Assembly (NCBI GenBank): GCA_945875915.1
Contig: CAMCMT010000046.1
Coordinates: 1 to 19,044, forward strand
Reading direction: 5' to 3'
Source of the DNA: Synechococcus sp. UW140
GTDB taxonomy: Bacteria > Cyanobacteriota > Cyanobacteriia > PCC-6307 > Cyanobiaceae
DNA length: 19,044 nt
Both the position numbers and the translations under genes were made by a program. Below, in pieces: positions 8,113 through 11,109 of the stretch (its first letter is position 1; the number at the start of each line of letters is the position of its first letter). The notes below the pieces were generated by a model, which was not told the origin of the DNA, made no database searches, and saw nothing but the letters and a program-made list of their open reading frames with translations.

Positions 8113-9459
8113 GTGATCGCTAATTTCCCCCCTCTCGATGATGTTGCTGCCCCCAACCCGGCAGCAACAGAACCGGCCAGCCTGAGATCGGGCAACGACC
8201 TCGATCCCCGGTTTAACCGCTGGGGCGTGTTCGGGGCTCTGGCGGGATTCCTGATCTGGGCCATCACCAGCCCGCCTGCGGCCCCGTTCCATGCCTTCCT
8301 GCACCAGCGCGGTCCCACCCAGGTGGTCTGTCTAGTGGCTGCGGGCATGGTGAGTGCCTTTCTGGTTAGCAAGTGGCAACTGCTGCAGCGCCAGGAGCGC
8401 AAGCTGCAGCAGTTGGGGCCGGGCATCACGACCTCGCTGCAGGCGGGAAATCTGGATGGGGCCGCCCTGCAGGCGGAGCAATCGGCCTCCTTGTTGGGCA
8501 AGCGATTGCTGCGGCTGCTGGCGGTCTGGCAGGCAAGCCAATCGTCGTTTCAGTTGGAGCGAGCCGCCGATGCCGATAGCGATGGCGATCAATTGGCAAT
8601 GCAGAACAGCTATAGCCTGATCAAGGTGCTGCTCTGGGCGATTCCGATTCTGGGCTTCATCGGCACCGTGATCGGCATGTCTCAGGCGGTCGGCTCCTTT
8701 GAGTCGGTGTTGGGCAATGCCGACAACGTCGATGGCCTCAAGGCTGGACTCACCAAGGTCACCGGCGGCCTGGGCACGGCCTTTGACACCACCTATTTGG
8801 CTTTGGTGATCTCGGTGCTGCTGGCGATTCCGATCAATGCGATCGAGCGGCGCGAAGAGCAATTGCTCAATGCCATTGATCGTCGCGTGCGCGATGCCGT
8901 CCTCGTGCTCAGCCCGATGGGCGAATCGGCCGGGGGTGCCGGCCATGGCGTCTGGCAGGCAGGTCATGATTCGGTGTTGGCGCCGCTCTCCCCGCGCTCC
9001 AGCGAGCTCGGCGCCCTGATCAACGCAGCCTTTGAGCAGCACTTGCCCGATCCGTCCGTGCTGGTGGAACCGGCGCGGCACTATGCCGAACAGCTCACTA
9101 GAGCCGCCCTGGCCAAGCTCGATCCCCTCACCAACCTGGTCCGCGATTCGGTGGAAGGAGTGGCCGAGGCACGGCTGAGCCTGCAGGAGCAGGCCCAGAT
9201 CATCCGCGGCAGCATGGATGGGGCCGCCCACGAGCTCACTGCTTCTCTGCAGCAGCTCAAACCGCTGCTGCGCGATCTGCAAAGCGCCAGCACCCTGGGC
9301 ACCGTGCTGGGGGAGGAGCTGGGCACCCTCAAGGCCAACATTGCACTGCGCCGTGCGATCGAGCAGCTCAGCGGCCAGCTGCTGCAATTGGAGCAACTGC
9401 AGCGCGAGCAGCTGGTGTACAGCCAGCGGAAGCGGCAGCGGCGCTGGCCCTGGCACTGA
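8113..9459 (+). CDS. MotA/TolQ/ExbB-family ion-channel protein with a long C-terminal helical extension
   Basis: Family core read directly: LLWAIPILGFIGTVIGMSQAVGSF...LKAGLTKVTGGLGTAFDTTYLALVISVLLAIPINAIERR, with the conserved Pro in both channel helices and the TT pair. Four hydrophobic helices with a ~80-aa loop between helices 2 and 3, which is MotA-like topology. After the last helix there are ~200 aa of heptad-like, Leu/Gln/Glu-rich sequence. GTG start at 8113. Confidence 0.8.
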   Translation: MIANFPPLDDVAAPNPAATEPASLRSGNDLDPRFNRWGVFGALAGFLIWAITSPPAAPFHAFLHQRGPTQVVCLVAAGMVSAFLVSKWQLLQRQERKLQQLGPGITTSLQAGNLDGAALQAEQSASLLGKRLLRLLAVWQASQSSFQLERAADADSDGDQLAMQNSYSLIKVLLWAIPILGFIGTVIGMSQAVGSFESVLGNADNVDGLKAGLTKVTGGLGTAFDTTYLALVISVLLAIPINAIERREEQLLNAIDRRVRDAVLVLSPMGESAGGAGHGVWQAGHDSVLAPLSPRSSELGALINAAFEQHLPDPSVLVEPARHYAEQLTRAALAKLDPLTNLVRDSVEGVAEARLSLQEQAQIIRGSMDGAAHELTASLQQLKPLLRDLQSASTLGTVLGEELGTLKANIALRRAIEQLSGQLLQLEQLQREQLVYSQRKRQRRWPWH

Positions 9460-9932
9460 TGGCAAGTCGGCGCGCCATGGGCTCAGCGGTGGGTGTGGAT
9501 CTGTTCTCCTTCATGAACATCATGGCGGCGACGATCGGGGTTCAGGCCCTGCTGATCGGCTTTATCGCGCTGCAGCTTCGGCCGGGTGGCCAGAGCGTGC
9601 AGTTCGTGCCCAGCGGCAGCGGCGGCAACCACCAGGGCAAGGTGGCCAACTATGTGCTGCTGCAAGGCAAAGGCCAGCTGGAGCTTTTAGCCGATGGCCG
9701 CCGCGAGCGCGCCACGATCAACAGCCCGCAGCTGGGTGCCTTTCTCGATCGCATCGCCCAGGCCGCCGCGCCCCAATACCTGGTGATCGGTGTCAAACCG
9801 GGCACCTATCTTGAATTCAACCTGGTACGCGCCCAAGCCGAAGCCAAGGGCATCGCCCTGGGCTACGAACCGCTCGATCCTCAGTGGAGCGTGAAACCCC
9901 CGCCGGCGTCTGCGGGCGCCGTGGCCCCATGA
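9459..9932 (+). CDS. ExbD/TolR-like single-pass membrane protein, paralog 1
   Basis: The ATG shares its A with the upstream TGA (TGATG). The N-terminal segment VDLFSFMNIMAATIGVQALLIGFIAL aligns by eye to the ExbD/TolR I-N-x-T-P-F-I-D-V-M-L-V-L-L helix. The periplasmic part follows the ExbD pattern (...YLVIGVKPGTYLEFNLVRAQAEAKGIALGYEP). Size is typical at 157 aa. Confidence 0.6.
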   Translation: MASRRAMGSAVGVDLFSFMNIMAATIGVQALLIGFIALQLRPGGQSVQFVPSGSGGNHQGKVANYVLLQGKGQLELLADGRRERATINSPQLGAFLDRIAQAAAPQYLVIGVKPGTYLEFNLVRAQAEAKGIALGYEPLDPQWSVKPPPASAGAVAP

Positions 9933-10609
9933 GCAGCCCCTTGCTGCTATTGCTGAGAAGGCGCGGACGCCTGAGGGACCAGGCGCCCAAGAGCGACGAC
10001 ACCGGTCTGCTCGACACACTCACCAACTTGGTGGGCGTGATGGCGCTGATCACGGCCTTGATGAGCATTTTTGCAGCAACCGGCAGCCTCACCATCCAGG
10101 TGCCGATGGTGCGCCGATCGCAGCAGGGATTCCATCTGCTTCAAGCCAGCGCTGCTGGCATCTGGGACCTGCAACCGGCCGCCAATCAAATGCTGGAGGT
10201 CGACCGCGAGCGGGTCGCTGCCGTGAAGCGTTGCACCAGCCTGCAGAAAGCGGCGGCGCAGCAGCAGTGCAACGCCGCCCTTGATGGCTGGTCACGGCAG
10301 CAGCTGGTGGGGCCGATCCGCGTCAATGTGAGCCACGGCCAGGGGAGCCTGCAACGGGTGGGGCCACCCACAGTGCCTGCAGCCCAGCTCAAGGGCGGCG
10401 GCAGCGCCTGGCTCGACGCCACCATGGCAGCCCTGGCCCGCGACAAGCAGCCCGTGTTTGTGGTGCTCGAGAGCGACGGCTTCGCCACCTACAGGGCCAT
10501 CAAGGCCAAAGCGCAACAGCACGGCGTGCAGCTGGGCTGGGAGCCCTGGAATGCCGGGACAGCCGTCAACTTCTGGAGCAACGCGGGCCGCAGCCTCACC
10601 GTGCAATGA
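9929..10609 (+). CDS. ExbD/TolR-like single-pass membrane protein, paralog 2 (longer periplasmic part with two Cys)
   Basis: I place the start at ATG 9929 because it forms an ATGA overlap with the upstream stop; the listed ORF opens at 9884. The segment DTGLLDTLTNLVGVMALITALMSIFAA resembles the ExbD helix and includes the Asp. The C-terminal PVFVVLESDGFATYRAIKAKAQQHGVQLGWEP is clearly paralogous to the end of the previous protein. Confidence 0.55.
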   Translation: MSSPLLLLLRRRGRLRDQAPKSDDTGLLDTLTNLVGVMALITALMSIFAATGSLTIQVPMVRRSQQGFHLLQASAAGIWDLQPAANQMLEVDRERVAAVKRCTSLQKAAAQQQCNAALDGWSRQQLVGPIRVNVSHGQGSLQRVGPPTVPAAQLKGGGSAWLDATMAALARDKQPVFVVLESDGFATYRAIKAKAQQHGVQLGWEPWNAGTAVNFWSNAGRSLTVQ

Positions 10610-11109
10610 CGTGTCTCTCCATGCCCCAACGATTGCTGCCACTGCTGCTGCCCATGCTGATGGGGTTACCGCTGATGGCCCCGCTAGCGGCCCTAGCCAG
10701 CAGCGCCGTACCCAAGTTTCCAGCTGAACTGCAGCCCCTGGTCGCCGCACTCAATCGGGCGCGCTACGAGGTGAGGCTGGAACAACCTCCCCAGCAGGGC
10801 GCCTACGGTCTCACCGATACCCGCCAGCGGCGCATTTGGATCGCGCCGATCAGCATCGAGCTGGGCCTGGTGCGCGCCGCCTTGATCCATGAAGCGGTGC
10901 ATGCGGCCCAGGGCTGCCCCAAAGGCCAGCTGAAGCCGATCGGCTGGAGCGTGGAGTTGGACCGCAGAATTGAGCTTGAAATCAGCGGCCTGCTCTACAG
11001 GGGCTACCCGCGGGGCAGGTTTGAGGTGGAGCGGGAAGCGTTTTCAATGCAATCGCACCCCCGCGCGATTGAGATGCTGATCACGGCCCTCGACCGACGC
11101 TGCCGCTGA
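10606..11109 (+). CDS. Small secreted/periplasmic protein with HExxH motif (putative zinc metallopeptidase-like)
   Basis: ATGA overlap with the upstream gene. Signal-peptide-like N-terminus (LLPLLLPMLMGLPLMAPLAALASSA). HEAVH motif within RAALIHEAVHAAQGC. Downstream acidic residues (EVEREAF) could supply a third ligand. Family not recognised. Confidence 0.5.
   Translation: MTCLSMPQRLLPLLLPMLMGLPLMAPLAALASSAVPKFPAELQPLVAALNRARYEVRLEQPPQQGAYGLTDTRQRRIWIAPISIELGLVRAALIHEAVHAAQGCPKGQLKPIGWSVELDRRIELEISGLLYRGYPRGRFEVEREAFSMQSHPRAIEMLITALDRRCR

Follow-up and report, generated by a model that had tools for sequence, protein, structure and literature searches.

We analyzed a 19,044-nucleotide stretch of DNA from Synechococcus sp. 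UW140 (assembly GCA_945875915.1, contig CAMCMT010000046.1, positions 1 to 19,044), hereafter called the window, with attention to four adjacent genes at positions 8113-11109 of the plus strand. A first-pass annotation had described these genes as a translationally coupled, stator-like module composed of a channel protein of the MotA/ExbB family, two ExbD/TolR-like paralogs that might act as plugs, and a secreted protein with an HExxH motif. We refer to them as genes 1 to 4, and to the first three as the trio. What that annotation overlooked is the secretion context. Genes 1 to 4 make up the distal half of an operon of eight genes that also encodes the exporter and adaptor of a type I secretion system, and that converges on genes for large cadherin-like proteins.

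An eight-gene operon with type I secretion genes

The open reading frames (ORFs) of the four-gene string were confirmed at 8113-9459 (gene 1, 448 amino acids), 9459-9932 (gene 2, 157 amino acids), 9929-10609 (gene 3, 226 amino acids), and 10606-11109 (gene 4, 167 amino acids). The junctions are as first described, with a TGATG at 9457-9461, in which the stop codon TGA (9457-9459) runs into the start codon ATG (9459-9461), and with ATGA overlaps at both 9929-9932 and 10606-10609. The ATG of gene 3 at 9929 falls within a longer ORF (9884-10609), and the chosen starts of the ORFs match the N-termini of homologues. Database relatives number at least 1414 for gene 1, 105 for gene 2, and 84 for gene 3. 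The spacings across the string are -1, -4, and -4 nucleotides (overlaps) in locus L001 and +18, -1, and -4 in locus L005. Because each protein belongs to a conserved family and the tight spacing recurs in orthologous loci, the string is real and translationally compact, and a chance pattern is ruled out.

The eight genes follow the order PpiC-like gene, HlyB-type ATP-binding cassette (ABC) exporter, HlyD adaptor, a gene for a 101-amino-acid protein, gene 1, gene 2, gene 3, and the HExxH gene, and no gap among them in the window exceeds 38 nucleotides. This order is kept in all picocyanobacterial loci with enough flanking sequence, and in these same loci the operon is convergent with a gene for a large or giant cadherin-like protein. 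The carriers include metagenome-assembled genomes (MAGs) of Cyanobium and Vulcanococcus, Synechococcus sp. MIT S9452 with its completed genome, and the marine single-cell genome AG-670-A05, and the identity of their gene 1 to that of the window ranges from 48 to 74%. An HlyB/HlyD pair therefore resides in the same operon as the channel gene, with a giant repetitive protein adjacent, which is the arrangement of a type I secretion system with an accessory channel.

The ABC exporter (3583-6606, plus strand, 1007 amino acids) carries, in order from its N-terminus, a cyclic-nucleotide-binding domain, a C39-like domain, an ABC membrane domain, and an ATPase domain (Pfam cNMP_binding, Peptidase_C39, ABC_membrane, and ABC_tran), and its best NCBIfam match is type_I_sec_HlyB (677 bits, cutoff 725). 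The adaptor (6610-7758, plus strand, 382 amino acids) has one N-terminal transmembrane (TM) helix, seen as a hydrophobic segment at residues 31-49, matches Pfam HlyD_3 and HlyD_D23, and scores 165.6 bits against NCBIfam type_I_hlyD (TIGR01843, cutoff 208). Both proteins fall just under the NCBIfam cutoffs, yet they have full sets of Pfam domains. By our own reading of the sequence, the catalytic Cys of the C39-like domain appears to be missing, with VPLACL where C39 peptidases have DCGxAC. The N-terminal cyclic-nucleotide-binding domain of the exporter suggests that export may be under the control of cyclic AMP or cyclic GMP.

Two tandem paralogues on the minus strand converge with the operon. 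The first (11113-15621, 1502 amino acids) is a cadherin-like/VCBS repeat protein that matches Pfam Cadherin_5, Big_9, and Cadherin_4 and the NCBIfam tandem-95 repeat. The second (15634-18963, 1109 amino acids) matches Pfam Cadherin_5, Cadherin_4, and Big_9. A C-terminal module of ~230 amino acids, running from …NLLDALALGAGxLYxLYGPKA… to …MAxLxELSLAL… and encoded at 11113-11895 and 15634-16416 (both minus strand), is common to these two proteins and to the convergent proteins of loci L001, L005, L007, L008, and L013. The module has no match in Pfam, and it may be what this type I system recognizes, or its signal for secretion. No signal peptide-like segment and no strong TM helix was found in the giant proteins, which are likely to be substrates of the adjacent type I system. 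A membrane anchor at their C-terminal hydrophobic stretch was considered and dropped, because by hydropathy this stretch is not a strong TM helix. In Synechococcus sp. MIT S9452 (CP138956.1; L005/L009), a called gene for a protein of 21,365 amino acids extends from position 17182 onward, two genes beyond the operon. The C-terminus of that protein is without the conserved 230-amino-acid module.

Gene 4 (10606-11109, plus strand) encodes a small, exported, putative zinc metallopeptidase. Its signal-like hydrophobic segment spans residues 13-31, and the HEAVH motif at residues 95-99 is invariant in seven orthologues, as are E142, E144, C104, and C166, so the original description of a secreted HExxH protein holds. 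Five of the seven orthologues weakly match Pfam DUF6782 ("putative metallopeptidase"), with a best E value of 4e-4 that is below the cutoff. Among the loci compared, gene 4 is confined to those of picocyanobacteria.

The channel subunit, its paired partners, and their distribution

Gene 1 (8113-9459, plus strand) encodes a channel subunit of the MotA/ExbB/TolQ superfamily. The Pfam model MotA_ExbB (PF01618) covers residues 140-255 with an E value of 2.4e-10 and a score of 40.7 bits (cutoff 22.9), which bears out the family first assigned. In an alignment with Escherichia coli TolQ and ExbB, T185 and T227 correspond to the pore threonines T145/T178 of TolQ and T148/T181 of ExbB, and both are invariant in 54 of 54 gene-1 homologues. 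T222 occupies the place of the conserved Glu of TolQ and ExbB. Another residue of the last helix, D225, is also invariant in all 54 homologues, which come from cyanobacteria and from the Planctomycetes-Verrucomicrobia-Chlamydiae (PVC) group. The last helix is followed by a C-terminal helical tail of ~190 amino acids.

The four TM helices originally ascribed to gene 1 are plausible but fall short of proof, with three strong hydrophobic segments and a weaker one at residues 37-53. Most PVC homologues of gene 1 open with a zinc-ribbon-like motif, CPxC…CPxC (alignment A8), which the picocyanobacterial proteins do not have. A zinc ribbon at the N-terminus of the PVC proteins argues for a cytoplasmic N-terminus, and thus for four helices in gene 1.

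None of the curated sub-family models in NCBIfam and PADLOC claims gene 1. The sole weak matches are to ZorA models, at 17.1 bits for NCBIfam (cutoff 100) and at an E value of 3e-4 for PADLOC, where only the channel core aligns. When a broad family profile was compared with the PDB, the one solved relative was 8VVN_C (E 2.9e-7), a tailed "MotA/TolQ/ExbB proton channel domain-containing protein" of 696 amino acids that we take to be of ZorA type. Solved ExbB, TolQ, MotA, and PomA were all unmatched by this broad profile, and a narrow profile matched no motor protein in the PDB. Given these results, and given that no NCBIfam equivalog threshold is reached, the module stands apart from the Mot, Ton, and Tol families as curated, as the first-pass annotation maintained.

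Gene 2 (9459-9932, plus strand) encodes the shorter of the two partner proteins, and gene 3 (9929-10609, plus strand) encodes its paralogue. AlphaFold2 (AF2) models of both proteins have the layout of ExbD and TolR, which in gene 2 comprises an Arg-rich N-terminus, one TM helix, and an alpha/beta periplasmic domain. The order of strands and helices is the same in the two models, and the predicted local distance difference test (pLDDT) score of the periplasmic domain is ~80-87 for gene 2 and >90 for gene 3. A comparison of the gene-2 and gene-3 families by hhalign gives 91.7% for narrow alignments and 99.5% (E 3e-23) for full-length alignments that include PVC members. Thus, the paralogy proposed at the outset is upheld. 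Residues 82-119 of gene 3 form an inserted helical hairpin, which gene 2 does not have, with two invariant cysteines (C102 and C114) that are likely to form a disulphide in the periplasm.

Several results point to a remote relationship between gene 2 and the ExbD/TolR superfamily. The top PDB match of the gene-2 model in Foldseek is E. coli TolR (5BY4; E 1.3e-3, prob 1.0, TMt 0.66), with 103 of 105 residues aligned. A gene-2 profile run against 1.84 billion cluster representatives recovered 395 relatives of the gene-2 lineage. Profiles of this lineage have ExbD as their leading PDB matches (E 0.0062 and 0.018), followed by TolR (0.13-0.28), and a narrow gene-2 profile has no meaningful PDB match. 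When these lineage profiles are aligned with ExbD and TolR, the register holds from the Arg-rich N-terminus to the end of the TM helix. In addition, hhalign aligns the gene-2 family with five ExbD/TolR sequences over 106 columns with a P value of 3e-4 and a probability of 40%.

Other results count against this assignment. Plain profile searches, which the first-pass annotation had proposed as the check on its naming of these genes, fail to place genes 2 and 3 in ExbD/TolR, and neither gene has a match in Pfam, NCBIfam, or PADLOC. The Pfam model ExbD (PF02472) is unmatched by genes 2 and 3 at E <= 1 and by 30 relatives of gene 2 at E <= 10, and among 102 distant relatives it is matched by only one (E 0.002). 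The gene-3 profile returns only coiled-coil noise from the PDB, and the gene-3 model yields nothing significant in Foldseek. Gene 3 is tied to ExbD/TolR because it is paralogous to gene 2, and not by any direct link. The assignment therefore stands on concordant results that are each marginal singly, and it is weakly supported, in contrast to the paralogy. With moderate confidence based on profiles and models, we view gene 2 as a probable remote member of the ExbD/TolR superfamily outside the Pfam family, and gene 3, indirectly and by way of gene 2, as a possible second member. No OmpA-family (peptidoglycan-binding) domain was matched in gene 2, in gene 3, or in their relatives.

An asymmetry between the partners is found in the TM helix. 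The TM motif of gene 3, (L/M)D..(T/S)NVVG, is invariant, and its Asp29 is at the canonical position, aligning with the column of ExbD D25 and TolR D23. All 40 of the 40 cyanobacterial and PVC sequences compared have both D29 and N33, and the two residues are likewise invariant in alignment A6. In the gene-2 lineage, PVC bacteria have Ser or Asp in the same column, whereas picocyanobacteria have Asn (9) or Ala (2) there. The canonical Asp is therefore kept by the gene-3 lineage only. Because genes 2 and 3 are kept side by side across phyla, distinct roles can be argued for them, and the sequence pattern fits a mixed axle that would carry one obligate proton-binding residue.

The trio is not restricted to picocyanobacteria. 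An alignment-based genome scan identified 232 loci, from which 8 picocyanobacterial species representatives and 72 others were kept. A scan with the sequence of gene 1 alone returned nothing. The 72 other loci (L016-L087), at an identity of 28-40%, belong to Planctomycetes, Verrucomicrobia, and Kuenenia. In 55-64 of them, and also on other cyanobacterial contigs, gene 1 is followed by gene 2 and then gene 3. The partner proteins of the 72 loci are larger, at ~270-300 amino acids for the gene-2-like and ~365-515 amino acids for the gene-3-like proteins, and in both a long coiled coil separates the TM helix from the C-terminal domain. The conserved gene order argues that the three proteins act together. 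On these sequence comparisons, the trio is best read as an old, self-contained module that predates the operon. What sets the picocyanobacteria apart is the association with type I secretion, the presence of the HExxH gene, and the absence of the coiled coils, which have been lost. Given that loss, the picocyanobacterial axle proteins probably act close to the inner membrane.

A possible accessory motor for type I secretion

Pathogenicity island 4 (SPI-4) of Salmonella already offers an example of a type I secretion system to which a proton channel is attached. In that system, SiiA and SiiB together make up a proton channel like MotAB alongside the SiiCDF type I system, Asp13 of SiiA is required for proton flow and invasion, and retention of the 595-kDa adhesin SiiE at the surface is under the control of the proton-motive force. 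How the proton channel and secretion are mechanically linked in SPI-4 is still unexplained. Like SPI-4, the locus described herein unites a MotA/ExbB-type channel, a type I ABC exporter, an adaptor, and a giant repetitive Ig/cadherin-like protein, and it has an Asp in a single-pass partner, where SiiA needs one for proton flow and function. However, SiiA is MotB-like, forms a homodimer, and has a peptidoglycan-binding domain, whereas the two partners encoded in the window are ExbD/TolR-like, differ from each other, and have no such domain, and only one of them keeps the Asp. The locus also adds to the SPI-4 plan a cyclic-nucleotide-binding domain on the exporter, the PpiC-like gene, the small soluble protein, and the HExxH protein, and, unlike SPI-4, it is without an outer-membrane channel gene. 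The likeness to SiiAB is therefore an analogy, as the B subunits are not homologous.

With this precedent in mind, we propose that the trio forms an ion-driven complex of the ExbB/ExbD type with a heteromeric axle, and that type I secretion of giant surface proteins has gained it as an accessory. This proposal draws on sequence and analogy, and we give it about even credence. How the complex forms, its stoichiometry, the flow of ions, the coupling to secretion, and the part played by gene 4 are inferred from sequence, models, and synteny as follows. In the inner membrane, gene-1 subunits would form a ring, inside which one gene-2 helix and one gene-3 helix would serve as the axle, and within this axle the conserved Asp would be on the gene-3 helix only. 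Ions would pass Asp29 of gene 3, the threonine ring, and perhaps Asp225 of gene 1, and we consider both this path and a single inner-membrane complex of the three proteins to be reasonably supported. In picocyanobacteria, the old three-gene module would have been built into an operon for HlyB/HlyD-type secretion, and the ion gradient might then be used, in the way that SiiAB serves SiiE, to assist or gate how the cadherin-like proteins are exported, retained at the surface, or released. Synteny and the Salmonella precedent are the reasons to think that the trio serves the adjacent type I system. More speculatively, gene 4 might act on the substrate in the periplasm, cleaving it or setting it free, much as LapA is released by LapG, a periplasmic protease.

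A number of observations weigh against this proposal. Export of the giant proteins by this system is assumed, these proteins have no RTX (GGxGxD) repeats, and no outer-membrane channel gene is present in the window. Gene 2 of the window has Asn20 in the column of the essential Asp of ExbD and TolR, and we know of no studied precedent for an axle with a single Asp. When the neighbors of the PVC loci were clustered, the trio alone proved to be conserved, with no secretion genes nearby. Two short-form trios are likewise found in other company. One (L090) is on a contig of 41% GC beside a large protein of the nucleoside triphosphatase type, and the other (L091) is near a caspase-like peptidase, a kinase-tetratricopeptide repeat (TPR) protein, and transposases. 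Because the trio occurs elsewhere without secretion genes, its adjacency to them in picocyanobacteria could reflect operon history rather than function.

These observations lead to an alternative in which the trio is a general envelope energizer, a housekeeping system in a class of its own that resembles Tol or Ton, whose targets are encoded elsewhere and whose position behind secretion genes is meaningless. The trio shares with ExbB-ExbD (Ton) and TolQ-TolR (Tol-Pal) the PF01618 core, both pore threonines, and the ExbD/TolR layout of genes 2 and 3. In favor of a general energizer, the PVC trios stand alone, often beside housekeeping genes (ribBA, ribH, nusB, and ftsY, which are 5′ of the trio in a Prosthecobacter-type group), the long coiled coils of both PVC axle proteins could span the periplasm as TolA or TonB does, and the trios on other contigs have unrelated neighbors. 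However, the picocyanobacterial axle proteins are without the long coiled coil, the order of the eight genes and the convergent giant protein are kept across picocyanobacterial lineages despite gene-1 identities as low as those given above, and occurrence in only eight picocyanobacterial species representatives is a poor fit to a core envelope function there. The Ton and Tol systems themselves have a TonB or TolA partner, with a TM helix of the SHLS type, a Pro-rich or helical spacer, and a C-terminal domain, and Tol has TolB and Pal besides. No such partner, no OmpA/MotB domain, and no flagellar gene was found among the window genes scanned, in agreement with the first reading of this DNA, and none of the genes of the conserved picocyanobacterial operon encodes a TonB/TolA partner or TolB/Pal, although such partners might be encoded elsewhere in the genome. 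Further differences are the Thr in place of the ExbB/TolQ Glu, the new invariant Asp225, the ~190-amino-acid helical tail on gene 1, and the axle genes themselves, which form a fixed pair of paralogues that the Pfam ExbD model leaves unmatched. We judge a general energizer to be unlikely, although it merits serious attention.

Motility offers another explanation, wherein the trio would be a surface motor that moves the cadherin-like proteins along the envelope or through it to propel the cell. In Flavobacterium, GldLM drives the giant adhesin SprB, and the ion-driven inner-membrane motor GldLM/PorLM is tied to type IX secretion. The resemblance to that system is in logic only, as a motor, a secretion system, and a giant surface protein are combined in both cases, but the protein families and the secretion system are different. 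Such a motor would bear on the non-flagellar swimming of Synechococcus, which needs the giant protein SwmB and for which a motor driven by protons has been postulated, though none has been identified, and the 21,365-amino-acid gene beside the locus in MIT S9452 would suit a role of this kind. However, swimming has been reported only for clade III of marine Synechococcus, whereas the locus comes mainly from Cyanobium, Vulcanococcus, and freshwater MAGs, and no motility is known for the carriers. No WH8102-type or clade III genome is among the eight picocyanobacterial matches, even though the search motifs are invariant in the family. We thus find this explanation highly improbable. We consider it scarcely credible that the trio is instead a Zorya-like anti-phage or conflict system, in which disturbance of the envelope would be sensed by the tailed MotA-like protein and passed on as a signal by its tail in the cytoplasm. 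The channel core followed by a long cytoplasmic helical tail is shared with ZorA, which supplies both the only curated sub-family matches and, by our assignment of 8VVN_C, the nearest solved sequence, and the caspase-like peptidase and kinase-TPR gene near L091 would be in keeping with a conflict system. Against this, the gene-1 tail is much shorter, the ZorA score is far under threshold (17 bits vs 100) and covers the channel core only, the partners have no ZorB-type peptidoglycan-binding domain, no gene like ZorC, ZorD, or ZorE is present, and PADLOC is blank for genes 2-4. In addition, the 72 loci in Planctomycetes and Verrucomicrobia, some of them beside housekeeping genes, are unlike a sporadic defense island. 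Membership in Zorya was rejected for the unmet thresholds and the missing partner genes.

An accessory of type I secretion remains our preferred reading, and it has a bolder form that we consider quite doubtful. The trio might be an unstudied kind of ion-driven rotary motor, with a tailed MotA-like ring and a fixed hetero-axle carrying one proton-binding Asp, that performs mechanical work on the type I machine or on its cadherin-like cargo by pulling, holding, or moving it at the surface. In some picocyanobacteria, such a motor could perhaps be the missing engine of non-flagellar movement.

The combination of one channel gene with two different plug genes, from which a heteromeric plug had been deduced at the outset, is less unusual than was then held, as it is already known elsewhere. 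AglRQS is one such case. Clusters with a "tolQ-like + heterologous tolR-like pair" have also been published for PVC bacteria, where they are described with TPR and von Willebrand factor A (vWA) genes (PMC12204202). These clusters have the same plan, in which one channel gene precedes a pair of unlike single-pass partners and a mixed axle is thus implied, and the PVC trio found here may overlap with them, but our clustering of PVC neighbors revealed no conserved vWA or TPR genes. What is new is the tailed A subunit with Asp225 together with a fixed pair of ExbD-like paralogues that has a single conserved Asp, and the independent recruitment of such a family into a type I secretion operon of abundant aquatic cyanobacteria. 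In a search of the literature, neither an account of this operon of picocyanobacteria nor a study of the motor family came to light.

If our proposal is correct, the locus would be of interest on several grounds. The means by which type I systems hold, release, and tension giant adhesins are poorly understood, and SiiAB is the only known case that involves a proton channel. The locus would be a second, independently assembled case, drawn from a different and far more widespread motor family, which is represented in cyanobacteria, Planctomycetes, and Verrucomicrobia by no fewer than 232 genome loci and, in addition, by the cluster representatives of the gene-2 lineage noted above. It would also bear on motors of the 5:2 type, because the axle would be a fixed pair of unlike subunits with one proton-binding Asp, and because the channel subunit has an invariant Asp of its own. 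Finally, the locus marks giant surface proteins of picocyanobacteria that are likely exported by a dedicated and possibly cyclic-nucleotide-regulated system.

Remaining genes and flanking regions

The first gene of the operon (2780-3544, plus strand) encodes a protein of ~230-250 amino acids with a weak likeness to PpiC and rotamases. It matches Pfam Rotamase_2 with an E value of 0.0016, below the cutoff, and the PpiC-related NCBIfam model TIGR04500 with an E value of 1e-4, far below the cutoff. This gene is directly 5′ of the ABC exporter gene in each picocyanobacterial locus with enough flanking sequence, and its true start may be downstream of position 2780.

The fourth gene (7774-8079, plus strand) encodes a small soluble protein of 101 amino acids for which no Pfam or NCBIfam family and no hydrophobic segment was found. 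It aligns with genes for proteins of 94-98 amino acids at the same position in nine loci, with the shared pattern ...KVRDVVRxFSxMPxEQRxAVFQRLGLPN...GDVEVEWxEWD. An overlapping plus-strand ORF at 7755-8090 was rejected as a shadow in the wrong frame, because conservation is seen for 7774-8079 only.

A promoter and terminator scan of positions 2400-11500 gave results at chance level. A perfect 7-base-pair inverted repeat (CCGCTGA/TCAGCGG) at 11103-11119, followed by TTTCT, was considered and set aside, as it folds no better than shuffled sequences (z -0.78). This repeat takes in the stop codons of both convergent genes. GC content is even along the window and thus gives no sign of recent transfer.

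Some loci have individual peculiarities. In L003, the region of genes 3 and 4 is broken into small ORFs, and in L091 the protein upstream of the trio, of 576 amino acids, has no MotA_ExbB match on record. In loci L001-L004, which belong to one freshwater lineage, a PIN/PhdYeFM toxin-antitoxin pair (420-1050) is located just 5′ of the operon. The left end of the window holds the 3′ part of a sigma-70 gene (49-423) and a gene for an ABC1/UbiB-type kinase (925-2625, minus strand). A sigma-70 gene is also present 5′ of the operon in L007.

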